Counted from the first letter of the stretch, positions 2,723 through 27,809 are shown. The stretch is DNA of 59,449 bases from a virus (IMGVR_UViG_3300034050_001176:1-59449), one strand, 5' to 3'. Notes: a model not told the origin generated them from the letters alone. Numbers and translations: made by a program.

Positions 2723-2725
2723 CCT

Positions 2726-8070: not shown

Positions 8071-8085
8071 CAGGGTGGATGAATC

Positions 8086-10245: not shown

Positions 10246-10256
10246 GAGAAAAACTT

Positions 10257-11492
10257 ATGCCCGTACCGATTAACAATAGCCGTCCATCCTTGCCGTATGC
10301 GCCAACCCAATCGCTTCCTAACAACACACGCTTTGGAATCTTAACGACCACACAAAGGCCGCCTACTGCTGAAATGCTCGATGCTGAATTCAATGCGCTA
10401 ACCGATGATGTCAATATGTTGGCAGCAGCGATTAATGATGTCCAGGCAGGAACAATTGCCGGCGCTAATGATCCCTTGAATGCTAACAAAGTTTTAAAGA
10501 CTGATGGGGCTAATAATCTTTCTTGGACACAAGTAACCAATGCGGAGATTGAGGTCAATGCGGTGGTTGAACAAAAGCTCGCCGCCCAAAGTGTCACTAC
10601 CCCTAAAATTGGTGATGCGGCAGTCACCACGCAAAAAATTGCTCAAAATGCGATAGCCACCCATCAGCTTATTGATGCGAATGTCACCACGGTTAAGCTT
10701 GCTGATGCGAATGTTACTACCGCTAAAATCGCTGATGCCGCCATCACCACCCCAAAACTTGCCAATCAAGCGGTAACCCAAAACCAACTCGCTAATGCTG
10801 CGGTGGGCACCAACCAACTCGTTGACGGTAATGTCACAACTGTAAAGATTGCAGATGTTGCGGTGACCACCGATAAACTCGCTGATGCTGGGGTAACGAA
10901 TCCTAAAATTGGGCTCTTAGCGGTAACCGCTCCGCAAATCAGTTCAGCGGGTAGTCAATTGGGAGATGTCTTAACCTCTAATGGTGCAGGGGCAGCGTCT
11001 TTCTTGGAAAATATCGGTAAGGTGCTACAGATTGTTTCCTATGAAGATGCACGTTTTGTGCGAAACGAATACGATGCGGCAGCTTCGCCAATTAACCTCC
11101 TCTCGTTTAAGACGGCACCGTTTTTGTTAAGAATTACCCCCAGAAAAACCAATTCGAAGATTATTTTGTTTTATTCGATTAATGTCGGTAGCGCCAACAA
11201 CCAGTATACCAGCGTCACATTATGTAAAAACGATCTTCCGTTTAAGGTGGGTCAGGATGATCCCTCCTATAAAGGCGTTACCCATAGTATTTATAGTGCT
11301 TGGGGAAAACAGCATTCAGATGGGCAGTACGGGTGTTTTAATTTTTGTAACTTCTTTGTGGACACAGGGGTTCAAGGCACAGAAATTGTTTATGAAGTTA
11401 AAAAGGCAATGCCTTACACATGCATCAATTCAGGGTATAGTGGAGGCTACGCCACCGTCAGCACCATGCATGCAATTGAGATCGATATTTGA
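10257..11492 (+). CDS. Short tail fibre/needle
   Basis: LDAEFNAL N-terminus, many 10-aa (I/L)ADA(A/N)VTTxK repeats, and a GKVLQIV C-terminal domain. Confidence 0.75.
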   Translation: MPVPINNSRPSLPYAPTQSLPNNTRFGILTTTQRPPTAEMLDAEFNALTDDVNMLAAAINDVQAGTIAGANDPLNANKVLKTDGANNLSWTQVTNAEIEVNAVVEQKLAAQSVTTPKIGDAAVTTQKIAQNAIATHQLIDANVTTVKLADANVTTAKIADAAITTPKLANQAVTQNQLANAAVGTNQLVDGNVTTVKIADVAVTTDKLADAGVTNPKIGLLAVTAPQISSAGSQLGDVLTSNGAGAASFLENIGKVLQIVSYEDARFVRNEYDAAASPINLLSFKTAPFLLRITPRKTNSKIILFYSINVGSANNQYTSVTLCKNDLPFKVGQDDPSYKGVTHSIYSAWGKQHSDGQYGCFNFCNFFVDTGVQGTEIVYEVKKAMPYTCINSGYSGGYATVSTMHAIEIDI

Positions 11493-11548
11493 TGGATGCT
11501 GGTACTGGGGTTAAAATGACGGAGATTGTCTAAATGGAGATTATCTAA

Positions 11549-11959
11549 ATGAAGCCTCTACAAATAGAACTCACCCCAATGAAACTTATCGAAATCAACC
11601 CGCTCGATGTGCAACGAGTGTTTCCGAGCTTTTATCACCAAGATTCGCAATTCTTTATGATCACCTACAAAGATCATGAGGTGGGGATTTATGGAATCAA
11701 ACCCATCGACCCAAATGTTTGTGAAATTTCTTTATGTATATTTGAAGACTATCGCTTTAAGCTTCCCTATAGAACTGGCTTAAAACTGTTATTAGACTTT
11801 CCATTTACTCATAAGTTTGATAAAATACTGATGTCCACCTGTGAAAAGTCGATTATTACTTTATTGCGCCAGTGTCACTCACTTGGGGTCGAGTTTGTCG
11901 GTTATGACAAAGACAACTATCAAAAAGTTTGGTTTAAACGAGAAAGGCAAAGCATATGA
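11549..11959 (+). CDS. GNAT-fold-like virion assembly protein
   Basis: VGIYGI..CEISLCIFEDYR and LGVEFVG patterns; sits before the ejection genes as in podoviruses. Confidence 0.5.
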   Translation: MKPLQIELTPMKLIEINPLDVQRVFPSFYHQDSQFFMITYKDHEVGIYGIKPIDPNVCEISLCIFEDYRFKLPYRTGLKLLLDFPFTHKFDKILMSTCEKSIITLLRQCHSLGVEFVGYDKDNYQKVWFKRERQSI

Positions 11960-12987
11960 GTTTTGGTGGTGATGATTCTCCCCCTCCAGCCCCCTATTAT
12001 CCACCAGTGCCGCCTAAGGAAGAGCTACTGGATGTGATTGATGAGGTAACTGGCACCCAAGCGATTACCGTGGTAGGAGCGGATGGTAAGAAAAAACGCG
12101 TGGTTAGCCGTTTACCGCGATCTGAAGCAGAGCAAAAGCTTTATGATGATGCCGGCGAGTTGATGAATAAGGCGATTGTGGAGATCAAACGCTTGAGTGA
12201 CTATGATCCTGGGGCAGTCGTGGATTTTGCTCCCTTTGTTGATGTCATGAACAATCTCAATGCTGAGCGGCAGGCAGATATAGCAGAACTCTCCAAGCTC
12301 CCCAACTTTAACCAATACGTAAACGACTTTAAGGCAATGGGTAACACCATTATTCAAGATGAATTTAAAAAAGCGGAAAATGAAAACAAGGCTTACCTGG
12401 CTAATCGGGGTTATGCCGACAGTAGTGCAGCGATTGCGATGCGTAACTCCCTGGTGAGTGAAAAAGCGAAAGCCCTGCAACAACAAGATGTCAACGGCAA
12501 TCTTTATGGGGAACAGCTCAAAGCCGCGGATCTTGGTAACCGCATGAATACTTATGGTTTTAGAGAACAAGGCCGTATGGGGCAGTTACAAAATGCCCAA
12601 GCCGAGCACAACCTAAAGTTAGGCCAGTACGACCAGTCCAATGCCATGCGCCAACAGGCTTTGCAAAACCAAAGTGGGTTATTCAATATAGGCTCAAGCA
12701 TTCGAGGCGAAGATGCCAACAAAGCGATGGCGACCCGGGCTCCAGAACTCGCCAATATCATCTTCCAGCAAAGCAATATGGACAGTCTAAACCGTCATAA
12801 TGCCCAGATTGGCCAGATCAACAGTCAGTATCAAAACCAACTCGCGAGTTATAACAGTCAGCGACCCTCCTTTGGGGATACGATGCTGCAACTCGGTGGC
12901 ATGGGTGTAGGTGCGTATTTTGGTGGCCCCATGGGAGCAATGATGGGCGGTCAAGCCGGTAAGACCGCTGGCAATCTTTTAAGGTAA
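11956..12987 (+). CDS. Internal virion/ejection protein 1
   Basis: MSFGG start, LANRG..DSS motif, Gln-rich body, C-terminal GxxxG hydrophobic GAYFGGPMGAMMGG. Confidence 0.65.
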   Translation: MSFGGDDSPPPAPYYPPVPPKEELLDVIDEVTGTQAITVVGADGKKKRVVSRLPRSEAEQKLYDDAGELMNKAIVEIKRLSDYDPGAVVDFAPFVDVMNNLNAERQADIAELSKLPNFNQYVNDFKAMGNTIIQDEFKKAENENKAYLANRGYADSSAAIAMRNSLVSEKAKALQQQDVNGNLYGEQLKAADLGNRMNTYGFREQGRMGQLQNAQAEHNLKLGQYDQSNAMRQQALQNQSGLFNIGSSIRGEDANKAMATRAPELANIIFQQSNMDSLNRHNAQIGQINSQYQNQLASYNSQRPSFGDTMLQLGGMGVGAYFGGPMGAMMGGQAGKTAGNLLR

Positions 12988-13018
12988 GGGTAAGTAAGGG
13001 TAAGGAACAATAAAATTT

Positions 13019-14422
13019 ATGACCAATGTGCCAATGGATTTATTAAAGCTTAGTGCAAAAAAGCAACCCAAACCAGGTGAGCTTAATGCCAATTTGCAAA
13101 CCCAAGGCTCCTTAGCGAAGATGCGCTATGAAACAGGAGCGGGGGTGCCCAATGCTCATGATGATCGTTCTGATGTCTTTAACAAGATGCGGCAACAATT
13201 AGGCAGTGGCTCTAAGCGAGGTTGGCGTGCAGGTATTGCTGGACTCTTGGATGGTCTGGCGGTTGGCAGCAAATCACAAGGAAACGATGAACGTCGTGAG
13301 ATGGCCAGAAAGATGATGGACACTTTCTCAAGTTTAGAGGGGATTGCGAATGAGGCCGGGAGACGTAATGCACTCTATGCCAAGAAAGCGGCCTTGCAAG
13401 AACAGCTTACTCCAGCATTAGAGGCGCTCACTAGAAATATGAGCGTCTTAGCTTACGATGATGTCGTCAAGGTTGGATCAAATATTGTCGAGAGGATTAA
13501 CCAGTCCAGTGGCACCAATTACAAGATCTCCATGATCGATCAGCAAAATGGTAAGGTGTTATTAACGGAAGCCGGAAAGCCTGATCAAAAGATTGATTTG
13601 TTTGAGATGTTTCCTAAGATCGCAGATGAGCAAAATGTTGAGTACCTGACCAAGAAAGCCATGCAAATTCAAGCAGAACAAGACAGGAGAGCACAAGCAC
13701 AACTGGGGATTAACCAGCAAAATGCCGATGCCATTCAAAACCGTACCCAGTTTAGTCAAGATCCTGATAAACAACATGATGTAACCTTGGGCAAGGAGCA
13801 GGCAAAAGCATTAGCGAAAAAGCAATCCACCCTATCTGAGCAAAATCTAGCCTTAGAAGATGTTAGCTACAAAATCCAGGATTTAAAAGATATCCTCAAC
13901 AACAGTGAGATGATTACTGGCGATACCTTGTCAGCAGGGTTTGAAAGGATAATAGGTAAGCAATTGGGCAACAAAGCCTATTCAGATACGGAACTCTATG
14001 ACTCAATCAGTAAAGGATTACTGTCGTTTGTTAAGGGCAATCTGGCGTTTGGCAATATGAATCAGAAGGAGTTTGAGTTTTTAACCGCGCAAACTCCCGA
14101 CAGCCATAAAACCAAAGCGGCCTTAGAACGTATGCTCAACCGTTTTGAAACAACGCTGGATCGACAAATTAAGCGTAATGACCGGGAAATCAATGCGGTA
14201 CCAAGTTATGGGAGACGCAATCAGCTTGCGAATGAAGCACAGCAGAAGGAACAGCAGGAGCAAATGCCGGCACAGACGCAGTTACCCCCAGAACAAACGC
14301 AGATGTCACCACAACCCCAGACTGAGATGGTACGCATGACGGCACCAGATGGCACGGTGGTTTTAATTCCAGCCGCCAATGTTGATTTAGCGATGAGTCA
14401 GGGAGCACGTCTTGTTGAGTAA
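13019..14422 (+). CDS. Internal virion/ejection protein 2
   Basis: Helical protein with a GNMNQKEFEFL motif typical of DNA-transfer proteins; position in the module. Confidence 0.6.
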   Translation: MTNVPMDLLKLSAKKQPKPGELNANLQTQGSLAKMRYETGAGVPNAHDDRSDVFNKMRQQLGSGSKRGWRAGIAGLLDGLAVGSKSQGNDERREMARKMMDTFSSLEGIANEAGRRNALYAKKAALQEQLTPALEALTRNMSVLAYDDVVKVGSNIVERINQSSGTNYKISMIDQQNGKVLLTEAGKPDQKIDLFEMFPKIADEQNVEYLTKKAMQIQAEQDRRAQAQLGINQQNADAIQNRTQFSQDPDKQHDVTLGKEQAKALAKKQSTLSEQNLALEDVSYKIQDLKDILNNSEMITGDTLSAGFERIIGKQLGNKAYSDTELYDSISKGLLSFVKGNLAFGNMNQKEFEFLTAQTPDSHKTKAALERMLNRFETTLDRQIKRNDREINAVPSYGRRNQLANEAQQKEQQEQMPAQTQLPPEQTQMSPQPQTEMVRMTAPDGTVVLIPAANVDLAMSQGARLVE

Positions 14423-16355
14423 CCCATCATCATCCAAGACAACATCCAGGACCACAACACCTCCTCAACAGTTTAATCTTGCAGCGCTCGGTGGTGTGGT
14501 TGAGCAACCTGCATCCACACCGCAAAAATTTAATCTCGAAGCTTTAGGTGGAGTTGTTGAAGGTACACAACAAGGTTTACAAGGAGGTGGACAAGCAGGT
14601 GCACAACCACAGAACCAAGAATCTCTGGCAACGCGCGGGGCAAGAGCTGTTGCACGTACCGCCAAATCCCTTGGATCAGGGGTCGTTGGTGGGTTAGCTG
14701 ATACAGTGACGATGCCTTACAACTTGGCCGCCACCATGTTCAATGCGCTAAAAGAAAGTAAGCTAGCCAAAGATCTCGACCCATCCTCTCGTGCCATGTT
14801 GGAAGCTGAAGGGTTTTACTTGAGCGAGCCTGGCAGTCCAGATATCCCAACAGCACCTTCTGCCGTCGATGCGGTAGATCGTGGTGTGGACAGTATCACT
14901 GGTGACTATACTAAAACTCCTGAAGATGAAAAAAGCTTGCATGAAGGGTTAAAGGCAGTTGGGTCATTAGCGAGCGCCGGTAGTGCTGCCAAGGGTGCTG
15001 TAAAGTTTGGGGCCAATCGGATTGGTAAAACTTTGGAAAAGTTAGGTAGTACAAAAGCCCGGGATCTAGCCGCAGGTGGCATTGCCAGTGGCGTAACTAG
15101 TGAAGCTCTAGAAAAAGGTCAAGGAATGCCAGCAGCCTTTGGTGAAGGGATTGGAGCAGGTATGCTTGCAAATGTGCTGCTTAATAAGAAAACCTTAAAT
15201 ATTCCAGCTAAAGCCGCCATGAAAACTCTAGGTTTAGACCCTAAAAATCTTAAAACCGACACCCTTGAAGCAGCTAAACGCATTGGTGTTGATTTACCGG
15301 CTTCAGGTGCTACTGATGCCAAGATGATGGGATTAGCCAATCAAATGGTAGCGGCAACGCCAGTGATGGGAGATGTGGTCAGAGACAAGGTTAAAACCGC
15401 ATCCAAACAGTTTCAAACTGCGTTTAAAGAACTCGCTGATTCAGTTGGCCCCATCAAGAATGAGGCTGTAGATCAGGAGATCAATCGTCTTTATGGAAAG
15501 GTTAGAGATACCCTTCCTAAGGATGCTGCAATAATCCCCACCCATACAGTTACAGCTATCAACGCTGTTAAAGCCAAGGTCAACACGGCAATCCTCTCCC
15601 CATCAGAGAAAGAATTGCTTGCAACTCTTGATACGCTTGGCAATAACCTGATGTTTGATAGCAAACTAGCAGTGCCAATGCCAGTTGAAATGCTAGTGGG
15701 TACCAAACGCAGTCTCAACAGTATTATTAAATGGGATAAAGACGAAGGGACGAAAAACCTGTTAAGAACAGTACAACAAGCCACGCTTAAAGATATTGAT
15801 GCTTACGGTAAGACCAATCCCACCTGGCAAAAGACTTTTGATGCAGCGGAACGTCAGTTTGAAAAAGTTGCCAAACGTGAAAAACTCGACAATCTTCTAG
15901 CTGGCAGAATTGAAGACCCGATTACCAAAGATGTTGCCTATGTTCCGCTAGTTAAGCTTTTAAATGACAAAAAATATGCCAAGCAACTTGAAACTACCCT
16001 CGGGAACCAAAACTTCAAGAAGCTCAAGGATTTTACCACCGTTGCAGAAAGTATGGCAGTTGCCAATAAAAACACACCCAATCCCTCTGGTTCAGCCATC
16101 GTTGGTTCAGTAGCAGCATTGGTTACTTCAATTGTCGTTGGAGATTTTACGACACCGCTTAAGGTCATTGGTGGTGGAGCTGTGCTCACCCAGTTGCTAA
16201 CCAACAAACGGTTTTTAAATCTCGCTACTAAGTTTGCCAAGCAACCAACAGAATCACTTGCCCAAAAACTCAATAGCTTAATCAAAGAAAGCACAGGTAT
16301 GACCTCTCAGGCGTTGATGACGGGGTTGAAAGAAAAATCACAAACATCAGACTAG
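14412..16355 (+). CDS. Internal virion/ejection protein 3
   Basis: Large Ala/Gly-rich helical protein with NPSGSA and a hydrophobic C-terminus; last gene of the operon. Confidence 0.6.
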   Translation: MLSNPSSSKTTSRTTTPPQQFNLAALGGVVEQPASTPQKFNLEALGGVVEGTQQGLQGGGQAGAQPQNQESLATRGARAVARTAKSLGSGVVGGLADTVTMPYNLAATMFNALKESKLAKDLDPSSRAMLEAEGFYLSEPGSPDIPTAPSAVDAVDRGVDSITGDYTKTPEDEKSLHEGLKAVGSLASAGSAAKGAVKFGANRIGKTLEKLGSTKARDLAAGGIASGVTSEALEKGQGMPAAFGEGIGAGMLANVLLNKKTLNIPAKAAMKTLGLDPKNLKTDTLEAAKRIGVDLPASGATDAKMMGLANQMVAATPVMGDVVRDKVKTASKQFQTAFKELADSVGPIKNEAVDQEINRLYGKVRDTLPKDAAIIPTHTVTAINAVKAKVNTAILSPSEKELLATLDTLGNNLMFDSKLAVPMPVEMLVGTKRSLNSIIKWDKDEGTKNLLRTVQQATLKDIDAYGKTNPTWQKTFDAAERQFEKVAKREKLDNLLAGRIEDPITKDVAYVPLVKLLNDKKYAKQLETTLGNQNFKKLKDFTTVAESMAVANKNTPNPSGSAIVGSVAALVTSIVVGDFTTPLKVIGGGAVLTQLLTNKRFLNLATKFAKQPTESLAQKLNSLIKESTGMTSQALMTGLKEKSQTSD

Positions 16356-17515
16356 CCACACTTGCTAAATGCTTGATCTACAATGTTAGTTAACTTCTTT
16401 AATTCTTCTAATTCTAAATGCGCATAACGCGTGGTTGTTGCAATATTTTTATGTCCTAAGAGTTTAGATACTCCATAAAGGCTCACTCCTTTCTTTAAAG
16501 CAAAGCTAGCAAAACTATGTCTAAGATCATGAATACGGACATCTGGAATGCCAGCTTTTTGACGAATCCTATCCCAGATTTTTTGGATGGTAACTAAATG
16601 CGTTCCCTTTTTATTTCCGCAAAACACATGGGGATTATCGGCTTGTTTTTTAAGACCTAAAATTACATTTTTAGCACTCTCATTTAAGGGGATACCTCGT
16701 TCTCCTACTTTGCTGTCTTTAAGATGTATGAAATTTTCTTTAAGGTTGACATCTTCCCACTTCAGGCTCAAAACCTCTCCTAAACGGCAACCCGTATATA
16801 TAAGTAAACGTAGGGCTGCGATAGTATAATTAGAAGCAGCATTTGCTCCAGCTTTTTCATCAAGAACTTGATTCAACCTTCCTAATTCTTCATCACTTAG
16901 GAAACGGTTCATTTTCTTGCCTGGGTGTTTAGGAACACCTCGACAAGGGTTACTATTTTGAGGTCTATACCCCCATAATTCGGCTTGGTTGAAAGCACAC
17001 CCTAGCAGTATGAGACATTTTGCGCTTGTACCATTGGACAGAGAATCTTTGAATGCTAATATATCCTTTCGTTCAATTTCAGCTATAGTTTTTTTCCCAA
17101 AGAAAGGAAGTATGTACAGTTTAATTCTTGAAGAATCTCGATTAATTGTAGAAGGTTTGTGGTGCTGCTTGATGTATTTTTCTGTAAACACCTGCCAGAA
17201 TTCTTCAAAAGTAACAGATTGCTGAATTTCAACTTGTTTTACTTTTTTATTTTCCTTTGGATCAATATCTTTGGCAATATCTGCGCACCATTTCTTTGCT
17301 TTGTCCCTAGCTAAGTCTACTGTGTAGTTTCCGTGCACACCGATTTTAAGATAAGAGTATATTTTTGTTGTTGGAGATGTATAAAAAAATACGTAGGTTT
17401 TGTAGCCAGATGCGTAAATACGGCATCCAAACCCCTTTATCTCATCATCCCAAATCACATAATCTTTTTCTCGTGGTAGACTGGTCTCTACAAGCTTTTT
17501 TGTTAGTTTTGTCAT
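16352..17515 (-). CDS. int: Tyrosine integrase with N-terminal arm-binding domain
   Basis: WDDEIKGFGCR arm domain; TGCRLGE, HDLRH, LLGH and TTRY catalytic motifs. Start taken at MTKLT. Confidence 0.95.
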   Translation of the reverse strand: MTKLTKKLVETSLPREKDYVIWDDEIKGFGCRIYASGYKTYVFFYTSPTTKIYSYLKIGVHGNYTVDLARDKAKKWCADIAKDIDPKENKKVKQVEIQQSVTFEEFWQVFTEKYIKQHHKPSTINRDSSRIKLYILPFFGKKTIAEIERKDILAFKDSLSNGTSAKCLILLGCAFNQAELWGYRPQNSNPCRGVPKHPGKKMNRFLSDEELGRLNQVLDEKAGANAASNYTIAALRLLIYTGCRLGEVLSLKWEDVNLKENFIHLKDSKVGERGIPLNESAKNVILGLKKQADNPHVFCGNKKGTHLVTIQKIWDRIRQKAGIPDVRIHDLRHSFASFALKKGVSLYGVSKLLGHKNIATTTRYAHLELEELKKLTNIVDQAFSKCG

Positions 17516-17532
17516 CCATTTCACTCAATTCA

Positions 17533-17557
17533 AACGTTAGATCAAAGTTAGAACAAA
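17533..17557 (+). repeat. Putative integrase arm-type sites (left)
   Basis: AAC-GTTAGATCAAA-GTTAGAACAAA, an 11-nt direct repeat. Confidence 0.5.
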
Positions 17558-17689
17558 ATGGGTTTTACTGTCAATTTTTATCCATAAATAGTGCATTATG
17601 AAGAATATAAGGTATATCCAAAAAAGGCTGAAAACCTTGATATACCTAAGGATTTTAGTATTTCTAGATATATCAAGTCTTGATAATTT

Positions 17690-17740
17690 ATCGGTTTTTG
17701 GTACCGGCATCCCTAGGTTCGAATCCTAGTACCCCAGCCA
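17690..17740 (+). tRNA. 3' half of tRNA-Gln(UUG); att core, not a full tRNA
   Basis: Anticodon arm TCGGT-TTTTGGT-ACCGG, T-arm CTAGG-TTCGAAT-CCTAG, acceptor strand TACCCCA-G-CCA. No TGGGGTA or D-arm upstream. Confidence 0.9.
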
Positions 17741-17854
17741 AGCTTTTATGCCTTTTATGGCTCTATATATAGATCTTATGGCCATTCACAAAAATCAACT
17801 ATGGTAAATAACTCCCAATGAATACCCTATAAAGGAAGATACATCTTGTTCTGA

Positions 17855-17879
17855 TGCTAACTTTTTGCTAACGTTAGCA
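17855..17879 (-). repeat. Putative integrase arm-type sites (right)
   Basis: The minus strand reads AAC-GTTAGCAAAAA-GTTAGCA, mirroring the left site; includes the palindrome TGCTAACGTTAGCA. Confidence 0.5.
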
Positions 17880-17904
17880 CATCAAAAAATCAAGATATTT
17901 TAAG

Positions 17905-19068
17905 ATGCCCCAACTTACCAAAGCAGTAATTGATAGAAGCCCCAATAAGCCAAAAGATTATATTATATGGGATGATGTAATCGCGGGATTTGGTTGTAGG
18001 ATTTACCCATCTAAAAAAACCTTTGTATACTCTTATCGATCTCCCATAAACAAAAAATCTTCTTGTATTAAGATTGGCGTGTATGGAAGCATTACTGTGG
18101 ATGAAGCCCGAATACAGGCTAAAAAGTTTGCACATAGTGTGCAAATAGAAAAAATTGACCCCAAGGAATTAAAAAAAGCCAAAGAAGTTGAGGTACAGCA
18201 GTCTGTTACTTTTGGAGAGTTCTGGCTGGTGTTTACAGAAAAATATATCAAGCAGCACCATAAACCTTCTACAATTAACAGAGATTCTTCAAGAATTAAA
18301 AACTATATACTGCCTTTTTTTGGCAAAAAATCTATAACTGAAATTGAACGAAAAGACATATTAGAGTTCACAAATTCCTTATCCAATGGCACTAGTGCAA
18401 AATGCCTTATATTGTTAGGATGCGCTTTCAATCAAGCCGAATTATGGGAGTATAGACCTCGAAATAGTAATCCTTGCCGAGGAGTACCTAAACATCCAGG
18501 GAAGATGATGAACCGTTTTTTAAGTGACAAGGAATTAGAGCGGCTAGACCAAGTTTTAGCTGAGCGAAATGGAACTGATGCTGATTCAAACTACACTATC
18601 GCTGCTTTTCGTCTTCTTATTTACACAGGTTGTCGTTTAGGTGAGGTTCTAAGCCTAAAGTGGGAGGATGTAAACCTTAAGGAAAATTTCATACACCTTA
18701 AGGACAGTAAAGTAGGAGAACGAGGTATCCCGTTAAATGAGAGTGCTAAAAATGTAATTTTAGGACTTCAAAAGAAACCAGACAATCCATATGTGTTTTG
18801 TGGCAGTAAAGCTGGTTATCATTTAATTAAAGTACACAATACATGGAACAGGATCCGTAAAAAAGCTGGTATTCCAGATGTAAGGATTCATGATTTGCGT
18901 CATTCTTTTGCTAGTTTTGCTTTAAAGAAGGGGGTAAGTCTTTACGGAGTATCTAAACTTTTAGGACACAAAAATATTGCAACAACCACACGTTATGCGC
19001 ATTTAGAGCTAGAGGAATTAAAGAAGCTAACCAACATTGTAGATCAAGCCTTTAGCAAATGCGGTTAG
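17905..19068 (+). CDS. int: Tyrosine integrase, paralogue of the left integrase
   Basis: Same catalytic motifs and identical C-terminal ~65 aa; diverged N-terminal arm domain. Confidence 0.95.
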   Translation: MPQLTKAVIDRSPNKPKDYIIWDDVIAGFGCRIYPSKKTFVYSYRSPINKKSSCIKIGVYGSITVDEARIQAKKFAHSVQIEKIDPKELKKAKEVEVQQSVTFGEFWLVFTEKYIKQHHKPSTINRDSSRIKNYILPFFGKKSITEIERKDILEFTNSLSNGTSAKCLILLGCAFNQAELWEYRPRNSNPCRGVPKHPGKMMNRFLSDKELERLDQVLAERNGTDADSNYTIAAFRLLIYTGCRLGEVLSLKWEDVNLKENFIHLKDSKVGERGIPLNESAKNVILGLQKKPDNPYVFCGSKAGYHLIKVHNTWNRIRKKAGIPDVRIHDLRHSFASFALKKGVSLYGVSKLLGHKNIATTTRYAHLELEELKKLTNIVDQAFSKCG

Positions 19069-20897
19069 TCTGAGGCTTCTGATTTTTCTTTAAGCCCCGT
19101 CATCAAAGCCTGAGAGGTCATACCTGTGATTTCTTTGACGAGAGCATTGAGTTTTTGGGCAAGTGGCTCAGTTGGTTCTTTGGCAAACTTGGTGGCTAGA
19201 TTCAAGAATCGTTTGTTGGTCAACAACTGGGTGAGCGCAGCTCCACCACCAATGACCTTAAGCGGGGTCGTAAAATCACCAACGACGATTGAGGTCACCA
19301 GGGCTGCTACCGAACCAACGATGGCTGAACCAGAGGGGTTGGGGGTATTTTTATTGGCAACCGCCATACTTTCTGCAACGGTGGTAAAATCTTTGAGCTT
19401 TTTGAAGTTTTGGTTCCCGAGGGTCGTCTCGAGTTGCTTGGCATATTTTCTGTCGTTTAAAAGCTTAGCCAGAGGAAGATAGGCAACATCTTTGGTAATC
19501 GGGTCTTCAATCTTGCCAGCTAGAAGATTGTCGAGCTTTTCACGTTTAGCAACCCTTTCAAACTGACGTTCCGCTGAATCAAAAGTCTTTTGCCAGGCGG
19601 GATTGGTCTTGCCGTAAGCAGCAATATCTTTAAGGGTGGCTTGTTGCACAGTTCTTAGCAGGCTTTTCGTCCCTTCGTCCTTATCCCATTTGATAATATT
19701 ATTCAGGCTACGTTTTGTACCAACTAGCATTTCTACTGGCATTGGCACTGCTAGCTTGCTATCAAACATCAGGTTATTCCCAAGCGTATCAAGGGTTGCA
19801 AGTAACTCTTTTTCTGGAGGGGAAAGGATTGCCGTTTTGACCTTGGCTTTAACAGCGTTGATCGCGTCAACCGTGTGGGTAGGGATTATTGCAGCATCTT
19901 TAGGAAGAGTATCTCTAACCTTTCCATAGAGACGATTGATCTCTTGTTCTGTGGCTTCATTCTTGATGGGGCCAACTGAATCAGCGAGCTCTTTAAACGC
20001 GGTTTGAAACTGTTTCGATGCCGCTTTAACCTTGTCTCTCACCACATCTCCCATCACTGGCGTGGCCGCTACCATTTGATTGGCTAAGCCCATCAGCTTG
20101 GCATCAGTAGCACCTGAAGCCGGTAAATCTACACCAATGCGTTTAGCTGCCTCAAGGGTATCGGTTTTAAGATTTTTAGGGTCTAAGCCTAAGGTTTTCA
20201 TGGCGGCTTTAGCTGGAAGATTTAAGGTTTTCTTATTAAGCAGCACATTTGCAAGCATACCTGCGCCAATCCCCTCACCAAAGGCCACTGGCAGATTTTG
20301 TCCTCTTTCCATAGCTTCACTAGTAACACCACTAGAAATCCCGCCTGCGACTAAATCTCGAGCTTTTGTGGTTCCCAACTTTTCTAGGATTCCACCAATT
20401 TTGTTAGCTCCGAACTTTATTGCACCCTTGGCAGCACCACCTGCGCTTGCTAATGACCCAACCGCCTTAAGGCCTTCATGAATGCTTTTCTCATCTTCAG
20501 GGGTTTTTGTGTAATCTCCGGTTAATCGGTCAACTCCTTTATCAACCGCATCGACCGCAGAAGGCACTATGGGAATATCTGGACTGCCAGGCTCGCCTAG
20601 GTAAAACCCTTCAGTTTCCAACATTGCACGAGAAGATGGGTCAAGGTCTTTGGCAAACTTACTTTCTTTTAACGCATTGAACATGGTGGCAGCCAGGTTG
20701 TAGGGCATGGTCACCGTATCGGCTAAGCCACCAACGAGACCTGAGCCAAGGGATTTAATGGTACGCGCAGCAGCTTTTACCCCGCGAGTGGCTAGGGAAT
20801 CTTCTCTATGCGGTTGTTGATCAGGCACAAAACCGTATTTATTATCTGGCTTCACATCTGGAACAAAACCATATTTATTGGAGGGTGTAGCCATCAT
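19065..20897 (-). CDS. Internal virion/ejection protein 3
   Basis: Paralogue of 14412-16355. Confidence 0.6.
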   Translation of the reverse strand: MMATPSNKYGFVPDVKPDNKYGFVPDQQPHREDSLATRGVKAAARTIKSLGSGLVGGLADTVTMPYNLAATMFNALKESKFAKDLDPSSRAMLETEGFYLGEPGSPDIPIVPSAVDAVDKGVDRLTGDYTKTPEDEKSIHEGLKAVGSLASAGGAAKGAIKFGANKIGGILEKLGTTKARDLVAGGISSGVTSEAMERGQNLPVAFGEGIGAGMLANVLLNKKTLNLPAKAAMKTLGLDPKNLKTDTLEAAKRIGVDLPASGATDAKLMGLANQMVAATPVMGDVVRDKVKAASKQFQTAFKELADSVGPIKNEATEQEINRLYGKVRDTLPKDAAIIPTHTVDAINAVKAKVKTAILSPPEKELLATLDTLGNNLMFDSKLAVPMPVEMLVGTKRSLNNIIKWDKDEGTKSLLRTVQQATLKDIAAYGKTNPAWQKTFDSAERQFERVAKREKLDNLLAGKIEDPITKDVAYLPLAKLLNDRKYAKQLETTLGNQNFKKLKDFTTVAESMAVANKNTPNPSGSAIVGSVAALVTSIVVGDFTTPLKVIGGGAALTQLLTNKRFLNLATKFAKEPTEPLAQKLNALVKEITGMTSQALMTGLKEKSEASD

Positions 20898-22251
20898 TCA
20901 GTGCCTCCTTTAACTTAGACATCGGAATTTTACCAATCACCCCATCTGGGCTGACAACAGGAACGGTTTGCTCAGCTTCAGCTGGCTGCTGTTCTGGCAT
21001 CTGGGTTTGCTCTTGGGGTAGCGGTTGTGTCGCCTCTGGTGAGCTTTGAGTGCGCGTCCCATAACTTGGCACTTTATTAAATTCCCGCTCATTGCGCTTC
21101 ATTTGCCGATCAAGAATCATTTCAAAACGGTTGAGCATCCGTTCTAGGGCGGCTTTGGTTTTATGGCTGTCGGGGGTTTGTGCGGTTAAAAACTCAAACT
21201 CCTTCTGGTTCATATTGCCAAACGCTAAGTTGCCTTTGACAAACGAAAGCAAGCCCTTGCTGATTGAATCATAGAGCTCGGTATCTGAATAGGCTTTGTT
21301 GCCTAATTGTTTACCTATTATCCTTTCAAACCCTGCTGACAAGGTATCGCCGGTAATCATCTCGCTGGTTTTAAGAATCTCTTTTAAATCCTGAATCTTG
21401 TAGCTCACATCTTCGAGCGCTAAGTTTTGCTCAGATAGAGTGGCTTGCTTTTTAGCTAAGGCTTTCGCTTGCTCTTTACCCAACGTCACATCATGTTGCG
21501 CATTAGGGTCTTGACTAAACTGGGTACGGGTTTGAATGGCATCGGCATTTTGCTGGTTAATCCCAAGCTGTTGCTCAGCCCTGCGATCTTGTTCTGCTTG
21601 AATTTGCATGGCGCGTTTGGTCAGGTATTCAACATTTTGCTCTTCCCTGATTTTAGGAAACATCTCAAACAAATCAAACTTTTGATCAGGCTTACCAGCT
21701 TCAGTTAATAACACCTTACCATTTTGCTGATCAATCATGGAGATCTTGTAATTAGCACCACTGGATTGGTTAATTCTTTCCACAATCCCTGAGCCAACCT
21801 TGACGACATCATCATAAGGTAAGGCACTCATGTTTTTGGTCAGAGCCTCTAACTCTGGGGTGAGCTGTTCTTGTAAGGCCGCTTTCTTGGCATAGACCTC
21901 ATTGCGTCTTCCTGCCTCATTCGCAATTCCCTCTAAACTTGAGAAGGTGTCCATCATTTTACGAGCCATATCCCTGCGTTCTGCGTTACCCTTTGATTTA
22001 CTGCCCACTGCCAGACCATCCAAGAGTCCAGCGATACCTGCACGCCAACCCCTTTGAGGCCCATTGCCTAATTGTTGCCGCATCTTGTTAAAGACATCAG
22101 AACTATCATCATAAGCATTGGGAACACCTGCTCCCGTTTCATAGCGCATTTTCGCTAAGGATCCTTGGGTTTGCAGATTAGCATTAAGCTCACCTGGTTT
22201 GGGTTGCTTTTTTGCACTCAGCTTTAATAAATCCATTGGTACATTGGTCAT
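20875..22251 (-). CDS. Internal virion/ejection protein 2
   Basis: Paralogue of 13019-14422. Confidence 0.6.
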   Translation of the reverse strand: MTNVPMDLLKLSAKKQPKPGELNANLQTQGSLAKMRYETGAGVPNAYDDSSDVFNKMRQQLGNGPQRGWRAGIAGLLDGLAVGSKSKGNAERRDMARKMMDTFSSLEGIANEAGRRNEVYAKKAALQEQLTPELEALTKNMSALPYDDVVKVGSGIVERINQSSGANYKISMIDQQNGKVLLTEAGKPDQKFDLFEMFPKIREEQNVEYLTKRAMQIQAEQDRRAEQQLGINQQNADAIQTRTQFSQDPNAQHDVTLGKEQAKALAKKQATLSEQNLALEDVSYKIQDLKEILKTSEMITGDTLSAGFERIIGKQLGNKAYSDTELYDSISKGLLSFVKGNLAFGNMNQKEFEFLTAQTPDSHKTKAALERMLNRFEMILDRQMKRNEREFNKVPSYGTRTQSSPEATQPLPQEQTQMPEQQPAEAEQTVPVVSPDGVIGKIPMSKLKEALNDGYTLQ

Positions 22252-22266
22252 AACTTTTATTGTTCC

Positions 22267-23298
22267 TTACCTTAAAAGATTGCCAGCGGTCTTACCGGCT
22301 TGACCACCCATCATTGCCCCCATTGGTCCACCCAAATAGGCACCAACTCCCATGCCACCGAGTGTCAGTATCGTATCCCCAAACCCGGGGCGCTGACTGT
22401 TATAACTGGACAGTTGGTTTTGATACTGACTGTTGATCTGACCAATTTGGGCATTATGACGGTTCAGACTATCCATATTGCTTTGCTGGAAGATTGTATT
22501 CGCCAATTCTGGGGCTCGGGTTGCCATCGCTTTGTTGGCATCATCCCCTTGAATCTTAGCCCCGGTACTAAACAAACCATATTGGTTTTGCAAAGCTTGC
22601 TGGCGCATGGCATTAGACTGGTCGTATTGCCCTAACTTTAACTGATGTTCCGCTTGGGCATTTTGTAACTGCCCCATGCGCCCCTGTTCTCTAAAGCCAT
22701 AGGTATTCATGCGGTTGGCAAGATCTGCGGCTTTGAGCTGCTCGCCATAAAGATTACCGTTGACATCCTGTTGTTGCAGGGCTTTCGCTTTTTCACTCAC
22801 CAGGGAGTTGCGCATGGCAATCGCTGCACTACTGTCGGCATAACCCCGATTAGCCAGGTAAGCGTTGTTTTCATTTTCCGCTTTTTTAAATTCATCTTGA
22901 ATGATGGTATTACCCATTGCCTTAAAGTCGTCTACGTATTGGTTAAAGTCAGGAAGCTTGGAGAGCTCTGCTATATCTGCCTGCCGCTCAGCATTCAAAG
23001 AATTCATGACATCAACAAACGGAGCAAAATCGACAACTGCGGCGGGATCATGGTCACTAAGCTTTTTAATTTCAACAATCGCCTTATTCATCAATTCACC
23101 GGCATCATCATAAAGCTTTTGCTCTGCTTCCGAGCGTGGTAAACGGCTCACCACACGTTTTTTCTTACCATCGGCTCCCACCACGGTAATCGCTTGGGTG
23201 CCGGTTACTTCATCAATCACATCCAGTAGCTCTTCCTTTGGTGGCACTGGTGGATAGTACGGGGCTGAAGGGGGAGAATCATTACCACCAAAACTCAT
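22267..23298 (-). CDS. Internal virion/ejection protein 1
   Basis: Paralogue of 11956-12987. Confidence 0.65.
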   Translation of the reverse strand: MSFGGNDSPPSAPYYPPVPPKEELLDVIDEVTGTQAITVVGADGKKKRVVSRLPRSEAEQKLYDDAGELMNKAIVEIKKLSDHDPAAVVDFAPFVDVMNSLNAERQADIAELSKLPDFNQYVDDFKAMGNTIIQDEFKKAENENNAYLANRGYADSSAAIAMRNSLVSEKAKALQQQDVNGNLYGEQLKAADLANRMNTYGFREQGRMGQLQNAQAEHQLKLGQYDQSNAMRQQALQNQYGLFSTGAKIQGDDANKAMATRAPELANTIFQQSNMDSLNRHNAQIGQINSQYQNQLSSYNSQRPGFGDTILTLGGMGVGAYLGGPMGAMMGGQAGKTAGNLLR

Positions 23299-23314
23299 AA
23301 CTTTTTACCCATAT

Positions 23315-23707
23315 TCATGGCCTTTCTTTCTTAAACCAAACTTTTTTAGAATTGTCTTTGTCATAGCCGATAAACTCCACTCCAAGTGACTGACACTGCC
23401 GCAACAAAGTAATGATTGATTTTTCTTGAGTTGATATCAGTATTTTATCAAACTTATGAGTAAGTGGAAAGTTTAATAACAGTTCTAATCCAGTTCTATA
23501 TGGAAGCTTAAAGCGATAATCTTCAAATATACATAAAGAAATTTCACAGGTTTTGGGATCAATGGTTTTGATTCCATAAATCCCCACTTCACAGGTTTCA
23601 TGATTAATCGCAAAGAACCGTGAGTTAGAGTGATAAAAGCTTGGGAACACCCTTTGGACATCCAGTGGATTAATTTCAACAAGCTGCATAGTTTTATCCA
23701 TCCTCAA
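23315..23707 (-). CDS. GNAT-fold-like virion assembly protein
   Basis: Paralogue of 11549-11959; start codon uncertain. Confidence 0.5.
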   Translation of the reverse strand: MRMDKTMQLVEINPLDVQRVFPSFYHSNSRFFAINHETCEVGIYGIKTIDPKTCEISLCIFEDYRFKLPYRTGLELLLNFPLTHKFDKILISTQEKSIITLLRQCQSLGVEFIGYDKDNSKKVWFKKERP

Positions 23708-24939
23708 ATATCGATCTCAATCGCATGCATAGTGCTGACGGTAGCATAGCCACCAGCATATCCTGAATTGATTCCTGTATAAGGCTGGGCTTTTTTAATT
23801 TCATAAGCAATTTCTGTGCCTAACACACCCGTATCCACAAACAAGTTTGAGAAGTTGTAGCAGCCGTAAGTGCCATCTGAATGCTGTTTCCCCCAGGAAC
23901 TGTAGATACTGTGGGTTACCCCCTTATAGGACGGATCATCTTGGCCGACCTTAAACGGCAAGTTGTTTTTACATAAAGTGATGCTGGTGTATTGGTTATT
24001 ATAACTGCCAATATTGATCGAATAAAACAAGATAATCTTAGAATTCGTTTTTCTTGGGGTGATTCTTAACAAAAATGGTGCAGTTTTAAATGAGATGAGA
24101 TTAATTGGCGAAGCTGCTGCATCATACTCATTTCTAAAAAAACTCGCATCTTCATAAGAAACGATCTGCAGCACCTTGCCGATATTCGCCAAGAAAGAGG
24201 CTGCACCTGCACCATTAGAGGTTAAGACATCTCCTAGATTGCTACCCGCTGAACTAATTTGCGGGGCGGTCACCGCTAACAGCCCAATTTTAGGATTAGT
24301 TACCGCAGCGTCAGCCAGTTGTTGGGTGGTCACCGCAACATCTGCAATCTTTGCAGTGGTGACATTAGCGTCAATGATTTGTGGGGTGCCTACAGCAGCA
24401 TTAGCGATTTGGCCTTGGGTTACTGCTTGATTGGCAAGCTTTGGGGTGGTGATGGCAAGGTCGGTAATTTTGCTGGTAATAATCGCATTATCAGCTATTT
24501 TTAACGTGGTGACATTGGCATCAATAATCTGATGGGTCGCTATCGCATTTTGGGCAATTTTTTGAGTAGTCACTGCTGCATCACCAATTTTAGGGGTAGT
24601 GACTGCCTGGGCGGCGAGCTTTTGTTCAACCACCGCATTGACCTCAATCTCGGCATTGGTCACATATGTCCAAGAAAGATTATTAGCACCATCGGTTTTT
24701 AAAACTTTGTTAGCATTCAATGGGTCATTAGCCCCTGGGATACTTCCTGCCTGGACATCATTAATCGCTGCCGCCAACATATTGACATCATCGGTCAGCG
24801 CATTGAACTCAGCATCCAACATTTCGGCGGTGGGTGGCCTTTGCGTCGTCGTTAAGATCCCAAAGCGTGTGTTGTTGGGCAGCGATTGGCTTGGCGCATA
24901 CGGCAAGGATGGACGACTATTGTTGATCGGTACTGGCAT
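23704..24939 (-). CDS. Short tail fibre/needle
   Basis: Paralogue of 10257-11492; start set at MPVPINN. Confidence 0.75.
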   Translation of the reverse strand: MPVPINNSRPSLPYAPSQSLPNNTRFGILTTTQRPPTAEMLDAEFNALTDDVNMLAAAINDVQAGSIPGANDPLNANKVLKTDGANNLSWTYVTNAEIEVNAVVEQKLAAQAVTTPKIGDAAVTTQKIAQNAIATHQIIDANVTTLKIADNAIITSKITDLAITTPKLANQAVTQGQIANAAVGTPQIIDANVTTAKIADVAVTTQQLADAAVTNPKIGLLAVTAPQISSAGSNLGDVLTSNGAGAASFLANIGKVLQIVSYEDASFFRNEYDAAASPINLISFKTAPFLLRITPRKTNSKIILFYSINIGSYNNQYTSITLCKNNLPFKVGQDDPSYKGVTHSIYSSWGKQHSDGTYGCYNFSNLFVDTGVLGTEIAYEIKKAQPYTGINSGYAGGYATVSTMHAIEIDI

Positions 24940-24949
24940 AAGTTTTCTC

Positions 24950-27103
24950 CTATGTATTACGTTCAGCGATGCCAAACAATCGCATCTTTTTAAAACTCAA
25001 CTTACCATTCTTGGTGGAACCAAGCACACTTACCCCAAAGGTTGAGCTTAAAAACTTTAAACGATCCTTGGGGTACGCATAGGGTTCATCTAATCTAAAC
25101 CCAAACATTTGTGGATCGGGTTCATTCGGGTCTGGCACGCCACGAGCCACCAAAGGAATGGTTTGTAAGATATCCCCTTTAAACGGCAGCGGATAATTAT
25201 TGGACAGGGAAAAAGTTTTATGGGTATCACCATGAATGAGGATCGATAAGCTATTCTCAATCCCAAGCACAAAACTTGAGGGATAAGCCACCTGCAGTTC
25301 ATAACGTTTGTTAGCCCAGCGTTTCCCTGGTAAGTGCACAAGGGGTGGTGTCCACATAAAGTTGATCAAATCCCGGCCATCATTATCCCCATACTCAGGG
25401 GTATCTTTCGTGCCATCAGCGTATTGGCTAATTTGGTTATCGATTAAAAGATACAAAGCATTGTCCAAGGTTGCTAAAAAGCTTTGCGCTTTCTCAAAAT
25501 CCCCAGAAAATAACGACCAAGCATACAGGTTCGTGGAGTACATGGAGACCAACAGCTTATTCAGGCCAATCTTAAACCCACAAAATGCCCCTGATTTATA
25601 CTTGAAGGAGCGACAGGCGCGGTAGGCCTGATTGGAAGTGGTGGTCGAGGTAACGTATTGTCGAACTAAGGGATCAACCGCATCACTTGGGGATGCTGCA
25701 AACTGCTTAGCCACGTTGAGAGTGCTAAAGGATAGTAGGCCATTTTGACTAACAAAATAAACATCATTAGCCATCTCGACCACGAGATTGCCGTGCACAA
25801 TGCCAATTGGCAGAATCGAGGAGAATTCAAACTTGGGGCGGGTCGGATCAACTGCTGCCCCTAAGGGTTCAGATCCTGTCCACACTTGGGTTTTACCTCT
25901 GCCCATAAAGATGGTCAACCCACTGACATAGGCGATGGCTTCGAGATTATCTGGAGCACCATGGGTTTGCGCCAAATCGATAAAGGGGACGATTTTAAGT
26001 TTTTCATCAAACCAGTTGGTCAGCGTATTCGGCTGATAGGTAAAATAGACCCGCAAAGCTTGGACAGGATCACGGTAACTCAATCCCACTGCACCCACAC
26101 CTAACGCCCAGAGGCGATTGTGGGCGACCAGCATAAAGCTAAAGGCAGGTGGCCAGTCCCGGTAAAATAGTTCAGGTGGATTCCCAAATGCCGGTAAAAT
26201 ATCTGCGGTTGTAATTGTGATCAGGTTTTGGGCTTGGAGAATATTGACAACCGTCGTGGTCGTCGTCACTCCATTAATTTTAAGCTGGATTTGATTATTG
26301 TTTTGATATTTAGTGATGTCAAAGACGTCAGCTTTTTGAGGTGAAAGACTAAAAGAAAAATGCGTATTATCGATGCGATTAAAATTAATTGCCGTATCTT
26401 CTTTAACAAAATCAACAACTTCGCTTAAAGTCACACCATCCCAACGCAAGACCTTATCAACCCCATTACAGATTAACAGGGTATTTAAAAAAGTCACCGA
26501 CCGGGGCACACAACCGACACTTAACCCGGTTTTAAGCACAACGCCAAGGGTTGAGGACAGCAAGTCATAAACGTAGATACTGCCTTGAGAAAAGGCCACG
26601 GAATTAATCGTCACTCCCTCGATCGGTAGGGGAAAGGAATTGTCTTGTACCGTGATCGTAACCGTTTGACCGACGACAGTTTTACTGACGATTGTTGCAT
26701 AAAGGGTGGTCACCCCAAGACTGGTGTAGGGAATTTTAATCGGTGTATCAACCCCAAATTTATCGGCAACTGCCGTATCAAAGCTAAATTGATTAGGGGC
26801 CAGCACTTGAAAATTCTGAGCTGTACCATCTTGGACAAAGGTTTGCACATAAAGTACCATCTGGCTGTCGCCATTAGCTTTGGCATAAGGGAAGGCTTCG
26901 ATGATCACGGCATCCGGATCAAGGTTCACACCGCCCAAGCGTTTGGTGCCATAGCGCACGACACTTGAGCCGACAGGTGTAGGCAGGATGTTTTCAAAGA
27001 CAACCGCAAAGTCTTGCGGCAACACTTCTGGAGCGATATTGCAGTTCATCCCTTGGGTGGGCGGATTAAACTCTAAAACGTTATAATTACCCTCTTGAAA
27101 CAT
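24950..27103 (-). CDS. Tail nozzle/stabilisation protein
   Basis: Paralogue of 8086-10245. Confidence 0.75.
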   Translation of the reverse strand: MFQEGNYNVLEFNPPTQGMNCNIAPEVLPQDFAVVFENILPTPVGSSVVRYGTKRLGGVNLDPDAVIIEAFPYAKANGDSQMVLYVQTFVQDGTAQNFQVLAPNQFSFDTAVADKFGVDTPIKIPYTSLGVTTLYATIVSKTVVGQTVTITVQDNSFPLPIEGVTINSVAFSQGSIYVYDLLSSTLGVVLKTGLSVGCVPRSVTFLNTLLICNGVDKVLRWDGVTLSEVVDFVKEDTAINFNRIDNTHFSFSLSPQKADVFDITKYQNNNQIQLKINGVTTTTTVVNILQAQNLITITTADILPAFGNPPELFYRDWPPAFSFMLVAHNRLWALGVGAVGLSYRDPVQALRVYFTYQPNTLTNWFDEKLKIVPFIDLAQTHGAPDNLEAIAYVSGLTIFMGRGKTQVWTGSEPLGAAVDPTRPKFEFSSILPIGIVHGNLVVEMANDVYFVSQNGLLSFSTLNVAKQFAASPSDAVDPLVRQYVTSTTTSNQAYRACRSFKYKSGAFCGFKIGLNKLLVSMYSTNLYAWSLFSGDFEKAQSFLATLDNALYLLIDNQISQYADGTKDTPEYGDNDGRDLINFMWTPPLVHLPGKRWANKRYELQVAYPSSFVLGIENSLSILIHGDTHKTFSLSNNYPLPFKGDILQTIPLVARGVPDPNEPDPQMFGFRLDEPYAYPKDRLKFLSSTFGVSVLGSTKNGKLSFKKMRLFGIAERNT

Positions 27104-27119
27104 ACTTCACCCCCTCCCG

Positions 27120-27758
27120 CTAGACACTACTGAACGTAGAAAACAGCTGACCACTGGAATTATAGAGATAAGCGAGTAGTCGAGTCTGACCGATTTCCCA
27201 ACGTGCTTGGGCAGCTTGGGCTTTTTGCAAGTTCTTAAAACCACCTTCTTCTTGAAATAAATAATACAAAGCACCATCGACCAATACCGGATGGTAGGCT
27301 AGAGGGTATGGGATATCCTGTTCTGGGGTATTCTCGGCTAAAATGATGGGTTGCGGGACATACCAGATCTTGATTGAGGTTATCGTTGTCTGCGTTGGAA
27401 CAAACTCCAAGACATCACGTTTAACAAAGTACTGGGTGGGATTACCATTAGCTGTAAAAGCTGGGTCTTTAGTAATTGCATCGCTTAAGGAAATTCGACG
27501 GAGTTGACGCTGATGGGTAAGGTCATAAACGCTGTTAACCAAATAGGGAGTTTCGGGGAGTTGTACCTGGTTTGAATCGACCTGATTGGCAAGCGTTACT
27601 TGAACCAGCAAATCCTGGTTAAAGTTGGCGGTGATCTGATACAACTCCAAATTAGCCAGGTTGAGATACTGCAAAAAAATAGCCCTCTCAACCTGGGTAA
27701 TATTATCATTACCCAAAGAGAGATTGCCCATTAAGCTCAGTAACGTTGATACTTCCAT
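27120..27758 (-). CDS. Head-tail adaptor
   Basis: Paralogue of 7432-8070. Confidence 0.7.
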   Translation of the reverse strand: MEVSTLLSLMGNLSLGNDNITQVERAIFLQYLNLANLELYQITANFNQDLLVQVTLANQVDSNQVQLPETPYLVNSVYDLTHQRQLRRISLSDAITKDPAFTANGNPTQYFVKRDVLEFVPTQTTITSIKIWYVPQPIILAENTPEQDIPYPLAYHPVLVDGALYYLFQEEGGFKNLQKAQAAQARWEIGQTRLLAYLYNSSGQLFSTFSSV

Positions 27759-27783
27759 CTAAAAACCCGCATCCTAATTACTA

Positions 27784-27809
27784 CCCCGCCTTTCAGCGGG
27801 GCTTTAATT
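27784..27809. terminator. GC-rich hairpin after the head genes
   Basis: CCCCGC-CTTTCA-GCGGGG; no good U-tract in the sense (-) direction, so it may be an attenuator or mRNA stabiliser. Confidence 0.4.

Follow-up and report, generated by a model that had tools for sequence, protein, structure and literature searches.

Two closely related tyrosine integrase genes stand back to back around half of a tRNA gene in a virus record of 59,449 nucleotides (IMGVR_UViG_3300034050_001176; this whole stretch of DNA is called the window below), and the locus raises the question of why two such sister genes should point away from each other at a single tRNA. The first-pass annotation had described divergent integrases around a half-tRNA, with a hybrid of two phage arms on one core, and this description stands: the spacer at 17516–17904 separates two divergent and, according to the ORF calls, intact integrase genes, intL and intR, and contains a tRNA fragment at 17692–17740. 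No reason had been given for the head-to-head orientation. Judging from related loci, it appears to be due to opposite polarity of the core relative to int and arms in the two phages.

The core shared by both sides (17692..17740, plus strand) was identified by comparison with the intact tRNA-Gln(TTG) genes of relatives. The gene is intact and 75 nt long in nine of nine relatives, and the fragment matches its 3' part exactly over 49 nt, from the second base of the 5' strand of the anticodon stem to the CCA; the 51-nt core proposed earlier is recovered once a single mismatch at 17691 is tolerated. By the same comparison, the anticodon loop occupies 17696–17702 (plus strand), with the middle base of the anticodon at 17699. 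ARAGORN reports no tRNA gene in the whole window, and Rfam gives a partial tRNA match in the spacer (E 0.15). This inner tRNA-Gln fragment is the one match in the whole window; the outer junctions are known from other records (L055 and L066).

On either side of the core lies the int-proximal arm of a different attachment site, named here after the two types of lysogen described below. The left arm, PB (17516..17691), belongs to type B and was recognised by homology to the arm between int and an inverted tRNA-Asp fragment in locus L009. The right arm, P'A (17741..17904), belongs to type A and is homologous to the arm that leads from a full tRNA to int in L001, L005, L006 and others; it places the start of intR 164 nt from the tRNA core. 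Two nested inverted repeats are found in the left arm (AGGTATATC / GATATACCT at 17610–17618 and 17639–17647, and CTTGATATACCTA / TAGATATATCAAG at 17636–17648 and 17665–17677), and a palindrome, TATCAAGTCTTGATA, abuts the core; the inverted repeats of this region (17610–17689) may be candidate sites for an accessory bending or directionality protein.

Both integrases are 387 residues long and were delimited by ORF calls, Pfam and alignment. The intL gene (16352..17515, minus strand) encodes a K-type N-terminal arm-binding domain; the ORF finder opens it at a GTG at 17524 (16352–17524, minus strand), but the ATG at 17515 is the likely true start, because relatives begin with MPKLTKK. The intR gene (17905..19068, plus strand) encodes an N-terminal domain of Q1 type. 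Each product matches Arm-DNA-bind_3, Phage_int_SAM_3 and Phage_integrase (PF13356, PF14659 and PF00589) above the curated cut-offs. Positions 2–169 of the 172 in the PF00589 profile are covered in IntL and IntR alike, so that the catalytic domain is intact in both, and the two proteins share the blocks HDLRHSFAS and LLGHKNIATTTRYAH, which we take to be their catalytic motifs. Over the whole protein alignment they are 79% identical. As had been claimed, they differ most in the arm-binding domain: identity is 53% (51/96) over the N-terminal ~95 residues, as against 90% (94/105) and 86% (161/187) in the remaining domains. The final 57 residues are identical, and the DNA that encodes them is ~86–88% identical. 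Nowhere do the two int regions share an exact match of 60 nt or longer; with DNA that has diverged over conserved protein, the pair is therefore not a collapsed repeat. In lambda Int, the N-terminal domain binds arm sites and the C-terminal domains bind the core, and it is the asymmetry of the overlap that sets the orientation of insertion.

The elements that carry these genes are two P22-portal-type prophages, inverted with respect to each other and 85–90% identical, not generic islands. Inverted repeats pair 370–17271 with 18149–39883 in 18 blocks of 72–97% identity, mostly 83–90%. According to Pfam and this inverted homology, the left prophage (1..17691, plus strand; type B polarity) carries terminase, P22-type portal, SU10-type adaptor and tail genes on the plus strand, followed by intL on the minus strand, and extends past the left end of the contig. 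The right prophage (17741..59449, minus strand; type A polarity) carries tail, portal and terminase genes on the minus strand and extends past the right end; it further holds two cargo blocks, then replication genes (54059–59409, minus strand) and an insertion sequence (IS) at 59321–59449. PF16510 (P22-type portal), PF03237 (T4-type large terminase) and PF24175 (SU10-type adaptor) are matched in both prophages and PF17289 (terminase) in the right-hand copy only; Pfam gave no matches to the other virion genes of either. The nearest integrases sit in metagenome-assembled genomes (MAGs) labelled Candidatus Finniella, Odyssella, Caedimonas and Caedibacter, and the host is a Finniella-like (Paracaedibacteraceae) protist endosymbiont. 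A viral contig collection yielded no match to the core sequence and a single relative of the integrase, at 33% identity, and a phage collection yielded only tRNA-Gln genes of unrelated phages.

Among related integrase loci, two arrangements of tRNA and int can be told apart. ARAGORN was run on 14 (L001–L014) of 30 such loci, and seven of the 14 have a full tRNA upstream of int and in the same orientation, ending 142–167 nt before it (Arg-TCT twice, and Met, Arg-CCT, Glu, Gly-GCC and Asp). The right arm of the window is of this type A in both architecture and sequence. The left arm matches that of L009, in which a tRNA-Asp 3' fragment stands inverted upstream of int. Scanning 22 upstream regions for the T-loop motif gave ten forward matches, four reverse matches and eight regions without a match; the reverse ones are the left arm of the window (Gln), L009 (Asp), L050 (Arg-CCT) and L051 (Gly-GCC), at 184–213 nt upstream of int. 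Beyond the fragment, all three type B loci from outside the window (L009, L050, L051) continue into cellular genes: YceD and SDR; WecB and Ugd; glyoxalase, APH and methyltransferase.

A lysogen of type A, the type of the right phage, reads full tRNA, P'A, int ... PA, fragment, host, and one of type B, the type of the left phage, full tRNA, P'B ... int, PB, fragment, host. One MAG (G001) contains, on separate contigs, the two ends of one type A lysogen and those of one type B lysogen. Its type A element lies at tRNA-Arg(TCT): one end (L062) consists of the full tRNA, P'A and int, and the other end (L063) of PA, the fragment and non-phage sequence with an ORF that looks KdsB-like by eye. Its type B element lies at tRNA-Asp: the full tRNA leads into DNA that over 1399 nt shares 82% identity with the P'B side of contig L058 (L060), and the other end (L061/L009) runs int, PB, fragment, host. 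In either type the element carries the tRNA 3' part, with the full tRNA at one end and the displaced 3' fragment at the other, and the type B integrase occupies the attR end. A further locus, L010, contains at 2500–2812 a distal arm, a tRNA-Glu-like fragment, a proximal arm and int, which corresponds to an attP-like site or a tandem junction; its anticodon loop is CTATTAA, compared with CTTTCAA in the tRNA-Glu of L007, and an MFS transporter gene lies upstream. This locus is binned as Bacteroidetes, probably by mis-binning.

The arms carry short repeats that can be used as a ruler. On the left, an 11-nt-phased pair of putative IntL arm-type sites, GTTAGATCAAA / GTTAGAACAAA, lies at 17536–17557 (plus strand), with its 5-mers starting at −163/−152 from 17699; on the right, the pair of putative IntR arm-type sites, GTTAGCAAAAA / GTTAGCATCAG, lies at 17872–17851 (minus strand), with 5-mers starting at +158/+169. 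The repeat search also found a third, inverted copy of the right-arm repeat, GTTAGCACATC, at 17873–17883 (plus strand), which is again a putative IntR site. Mirror-placed 11-nt repeats had been reported 140–150 nt from the core; these distances were approximate, and the measured ones are the offsets just given. The mirror placement itself is confirmed: a search of all 59,449 bases found GTTAGN6GTTAG in two places only, 17536–17551 (plus strand) and 17857–17872 (minus strand). The expected count is 0.06, and two occurrences were reached in none of 100 shuffles.

Phased GTTAG pairs recur on the proximal and distal arms of both types, at fixed offsets and apart from the core, as would befit arm sites. 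Measured from the middle base of the anticodon, the 5-mers of type A start at −81/−70 on the distal arm PA (L058 and L063; −80/−69 in L010) and at +158/+169 on the proximal arm P'A (the window and L062; +159/+170 in L010), all on the minus strand. Those of type B start at +67/+78 on the distal arm P'B (L058; +66/+77 in L060) and at −163/−152 on the proximal arm PB (the window; −162/−151 in L009), all on the plus strand. When type B is reflected about the centre of the loop, its offsets become −82/−71 and +148/+159: the distal pairs of the two types then coincide within 1 nt, as does one proximal repeat, the other being offset by one 11-nt period. By arithmetic on the same offsets, reflection about the T-loop would fail to superpose them. 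The conservation of these distances across types argues that the tRNA core has been flipped relative to the arms and that int has not moved.

The arms themselves seem to have been adjusted to this flip. The proximal arm of type B has ~50 extra nt beside the core, and its distal arm is correspondingly shorter; gain and loss would compensate for the tRNA 3' part changing sides and thereby keep the arm sites in register. A tRNA 3' part in decay was considered as the source of these ~50 nt in the proximal arm and was dropped, the resemblance by eye being too weak. The identity blocks also begin at nearly the same place in five tRNAs, at the 5' anticodon stem in Gln and 0–4 nt 5' of the loop in the Asp, Arg-CCT, Gly-GCC and Arg-TCT fragments, and from these boundaries we infer a crossover within the anticodon loop, 17696–17702.

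Taken with the junctions found in sibling records, these features make it probable, in our judgement, that the spacer is the inner junction of a head-to-head tandem array of two sister temperate phages, which would have inserted into one tRNA-Gln(TTG) gene of the Finniella-like (Paracaedibacteraceae) host. Both phages would use a heterobivalent tyrosine integrase with crossover in the anticodon loop and would contain a copy of that part of the tRNA which extends from the anticodon stem to the CCA. In type A, this core would be oriented with int, and in type B it would be flipped relative to int and both arms; given this opposite polarity, two phages at one tRNA must lie head-to-head. In the order PB, core, P'A, the fragment in the window would then serve the left phage as attR and the right phage as attL, and the presumed order of insertion would give an array reading tRNA-Gln, B, core, A, core, host. 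Each phage, together with its own outer site, could in principle be excised alone.

Matching att copies at the far ends of the elements, which had been named beforehand as a check, do occur in sibling records (L055, L066 and the lysogen ends of MAG G001). L055 joins the full tRNA-Gln to P'B. L066 runs from PA through the Gln fragment, with one mismatch, into host DNA in which the next ORF is TrmD-like by eye, and this downstream sequence also follows the full tRNA-Gln at an unoccupied site (L054); L066 belongs to a MAG that is not necessarily the host of the window. The PB-core-P'A junction is present in a separately assembled 4.6-kb contig as well (L059, 100% identical over 4523 nt). In no single record is the array complete: each prophage of the window continues beyond its end of the contig, and the outer junctions were found in other samples or MAGs, with arms only 82–88% identical to each other. 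The reciprocal junction, PA-core-P'B, was recovered from two samples (L057 and L058, 100% identical over 3332 nt). It is not expected from a simple two-member array and needs a third copy, another order of insertion, or a circle. The first-pass annotation had offered the junction in the window as the attP of a composite circle; this assignment fails, as the junction would be internal to such a circle and its attP would be PA-core-P'B, as in L057/L058.

A circle of this kind is the basis of the first alternative, in which the contig derives from a circular heterodimer of A and B with two hybrid junctions, formed by exchange between two attP sites or by excision of the whole array. Both hybrid junctions do occur, and both are represented under one sample prefix, by L059 and L057; among the 16 exact-core matches there is neither a cognate attP (PA-core-P'A or PB-core-P'B) nor a P-core-host junction; and the source is filed as a virus record. 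All of this would suit a heterodimer, yet L055 (tRNA-Gln and P'B) and L066 (PA, fragment and host) show that insertion into the chromosome takes place here, and the two ends of the 59,449-base record have no overlap. In P22-like phages, which package DNA by the headful, a dimer of more than ~80 kb would moreover probably not be packaged. We therefore regard a heterodimer as unlikely.

Slightly less likely still is an assembly chimera, in which the assembler would have crossed within the common 49-nt core between separate A and B genomes or single lysogens. The core is indeed a perfect repeat common to several contexts in the same samples, the two hybrids are exactly the reciprocal products of a mis-join between attP(A) and attP(B), and the Logan contigs stop at the core: in four runs (k = 31) they break at the 49 nt, and PB-core, core-P'A, PA-core and core-P'B each occur. 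Each hybrid was nevertheless assembled twice (the window and L059; L057 and L058), and all four contigs are hybrid, with a cognate attP in none. Reads of ordinary length span 49 nt, and in 11 of the 24 runs listed, at least 96% of the words sampled from 17300–18100 are present. The physical link PB-core-P'A rests on two assemblies.

Finally, a family of single polarity whose left phage was inverted later, by homologous recombination or aberrant inversion by the integrase, so that the junction is a scar, might be suggested by the long inverted repeats of 85–90% identity that the prophages offer as substrates, but it is highly improbable, since single type B lysogens have host DNA on the fragment side (L009, L050, L051), the matching full-tRNA end of type B is found in the same MAG (L060), the ~50-nt insert in the left arm preserves the register between arm sites and loop, and the core, which would have been inverted too, is not.

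In the proposed mechanism, the repeat pair of each arm would be matched to the divergent N-terminal arm-binding domain of its own integrase. The left pair is of the variant GTTAGA(A/T)C and the right pair of the variant GTTAGCA, and these variants co-vary with the type of N domain across relatives, in agreement with the earlier claim that each arm has its own variant: K-type domains pair with (T/A)CTAAC in four of four relatives, Q1-type domains with a GCTAAC repeat in five of six, and Q2-type domains with G(T/C)TA(T/C)TT in three of three. The arm repeats of L050 and L051 are of other kinds, which counts against the overall reading. This co-variation supports, by inference from sequence, a "private" recognition of arms by each integrase. 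The arm repeats lie 20–70 nt upstream of the respective int start, and a scan of 17400–18000 for promoter and terminator consensus sequences found neither. Probably, the repeats also serve to repress the promoter of their own int gene. Such autoregulation is likely by analogy with IntS of KplE1, in which the int promoters are reported to overlap the attL arm sites and to be negatively autoregulated (PMC2951348).

The N domain appears to be a separate mosaic module that moves independently of the rest of the integrase. L006 shares 98% identity with IntR within the N domain and 62% outside it; for L009 and IntL the values are 92% and 64%, respectively, and the whole-protein integrase tree is mosaic. 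The closest relatives of IntL are L003 (84%) and L004 (83%), which have K-type arms (L003/L041 and L004/L042); the motif scan recognised no tRNA fragment within 1.5 kb upstream of int in either, a further point against the overall reading. L003 has a perfect 12-bp hairpin upstream of int, CAACATAGGCAA...TTGCCTATGTTG, and the target of L003 and L004 may possibly be a site other than a tRNA.

The core seems to be exchanged as well. The integrase next to tRNA-Arg(TCT) in L001 is 98% identical to IntR, and the P' arms of L001/L062 and the window are near-identical only across the int-proximal ~110 nt, which suggests the exchange of a cassette made up of the core and the ~60 nt next to it. Integrases 98% identical are thus found at tRNA-Gln and at tRNA-Arg(TCT), catalytic parts 87% identical use the Gln core in both polarities, and relatives use at least nine tRNA genes, for which seven species have been named (Gln, Arg-TCT, Arg-CCT, Met, Glu, Gly-GCC and Asp). 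Together with arm sites locked to the centre of the loop within 1 nt, this suggests that the core cassette sets target and direction. That the phage-borne copy of the anticodon stem-loop, and not the protein, dictates the target tRNA and the direction of insertion throughout this integrase family is a tentative proposal, which we hold possible but would not yet favour.

If it were true, the recombinase would be naturally reprogrammable and indifferent to polarity, and core flips would be routine in its evolution and would give rise to head-to-head arrays and hybrid att sites. The opposite core polarity of the two sister phages would, by its geometry alone, fix the crossover at the anticodon loop, and it explains the puzzling head-to-head layout. 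Together with the shuffled arm-binding domains and the many tRNA targets, it suggests integrases whose target and direction would be set by a short DNA cassette, which is of practical interest for integrase engineering. The present phages would be the natural counterpart of lambda experiments with engineered sites, arms and core orientation being separable in both: in lambda, a core turned round with respect to the arms is reported to be tolerated (Kitts and Nash, 1988). The lambda flip was made in the laboratory, whereas here two natural lineages are concerned, with P4-like Arm-DNA-bind_3 integrases and the anticodon stem-loop of a tRNA as target.

Tandem prophages and tRNA-targeting integrases are textbook matter; the use of the same tRNA core in opposite polarity by sister phages is apparently undescribed, and a full-text literature search, which covered listings and some passages, found no account of it. 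The closest parallels differ in defined ways. Among the 3919 islands of Islander, 125 arrays of two or more are counted, and 2083 islands have anticodon-centred sites (PMC4383910). As in these tDNA arrays, several elements with their own integrases would share one tDNA here, and displaced 3' tDNA fragments would mark the borders; unlike in them, the members are 85–90% identical sisters and yet lie head-to-head. The accessible parts of the Islander account define arrays by the orientation of fragments and do not mention the orientation of int or polarity-flipped sisters (PMC4383910). In Mycobacterium abscessus, the phages prophiT36-2a and -2b are inserted at the same attB and joined by a hybrid attR(a)/attL(b), and each is still released (PMC9934374); a hybrid attR/attL junction at one attB would be shared with the present case. 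Their attP lies inside the repressor gene and confers integration-dependent immunity, unlike here, and the available text on them has neither opposite core polarity nor divergent integrases (PMC9934374). The KplE1 arrangement of IntS and attL at argW (the "STI" shape) resembles type A, with int downstream of the tRNA and pointing the same way; type B differs from it in having int at the other end of the prophage, beside the displaced fragment (PMC2951348).

Several features of the prophages outside the attachment sites may be added. In the right prophage, 46022–53968 encodes a 2382-aa protein with DUF637 (haemagglutinin/CdiA-like) and then a SUKH-family immunity-like protein; these genes lie on the strand opposite to the phage genes and adjoin genes for an HTH_7 protein and an MFS transporter (43647–45959), and the block looks like polymorphic toxin/immunity cargo. 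An insert of ~4.7 kb at 32785–38000, between portal and terminase, is present in the right prophage only (the corresponding gap on the left is 2252–2732); it has four ORFs, one of which encodes a patatin-like phospholipase (36699–37871). The window would also show that temperate phages which carry toxin and lipase cargo are active in endosymbionts of the Paracaedibacteraceae. Within a 1.4-kb intergenic region, 42990–43260 is densely filled with iterons of the GCAGTAAGT / ACTTACTGC type in both orientations, flanked by inverted arms (42909–42956 and 43246–43293) that contain GTTAT/GTTAG pairs, and could be an origin or a partition site. This region (42909–43293) was ruled out as a second att junction, as it has no tRNA fragment and is full of GCAGTAAGT-type iterons instead.

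In L057, the primase gene and the type B distal arm flank a gene at 1121–1372 (minus strand) for an 83-aa HTH_17 (excisionase/AlpA-like) protein, which is a candidate for the directionality factor; in both prophages of the window, this part falls beyond the contig. An attempt to join the right end of the window to the PA side of L058 failed, the window ending in an IS and L058, by eye, in the 3' end of an IS30-like transposase. The IS at the window end is 842 bp long in full and has terminal inverted repeats of 23 nt; its initial 129 nt make up 59321–59449, and it interrupts the start of the primase gene. These 129 nt are 100% identical to a copy in host contig L053 (4087–4928), ~1 kb upstream of an empty tRNA-Gln site, and the shared IS ties the phage to the host lineage of L053.
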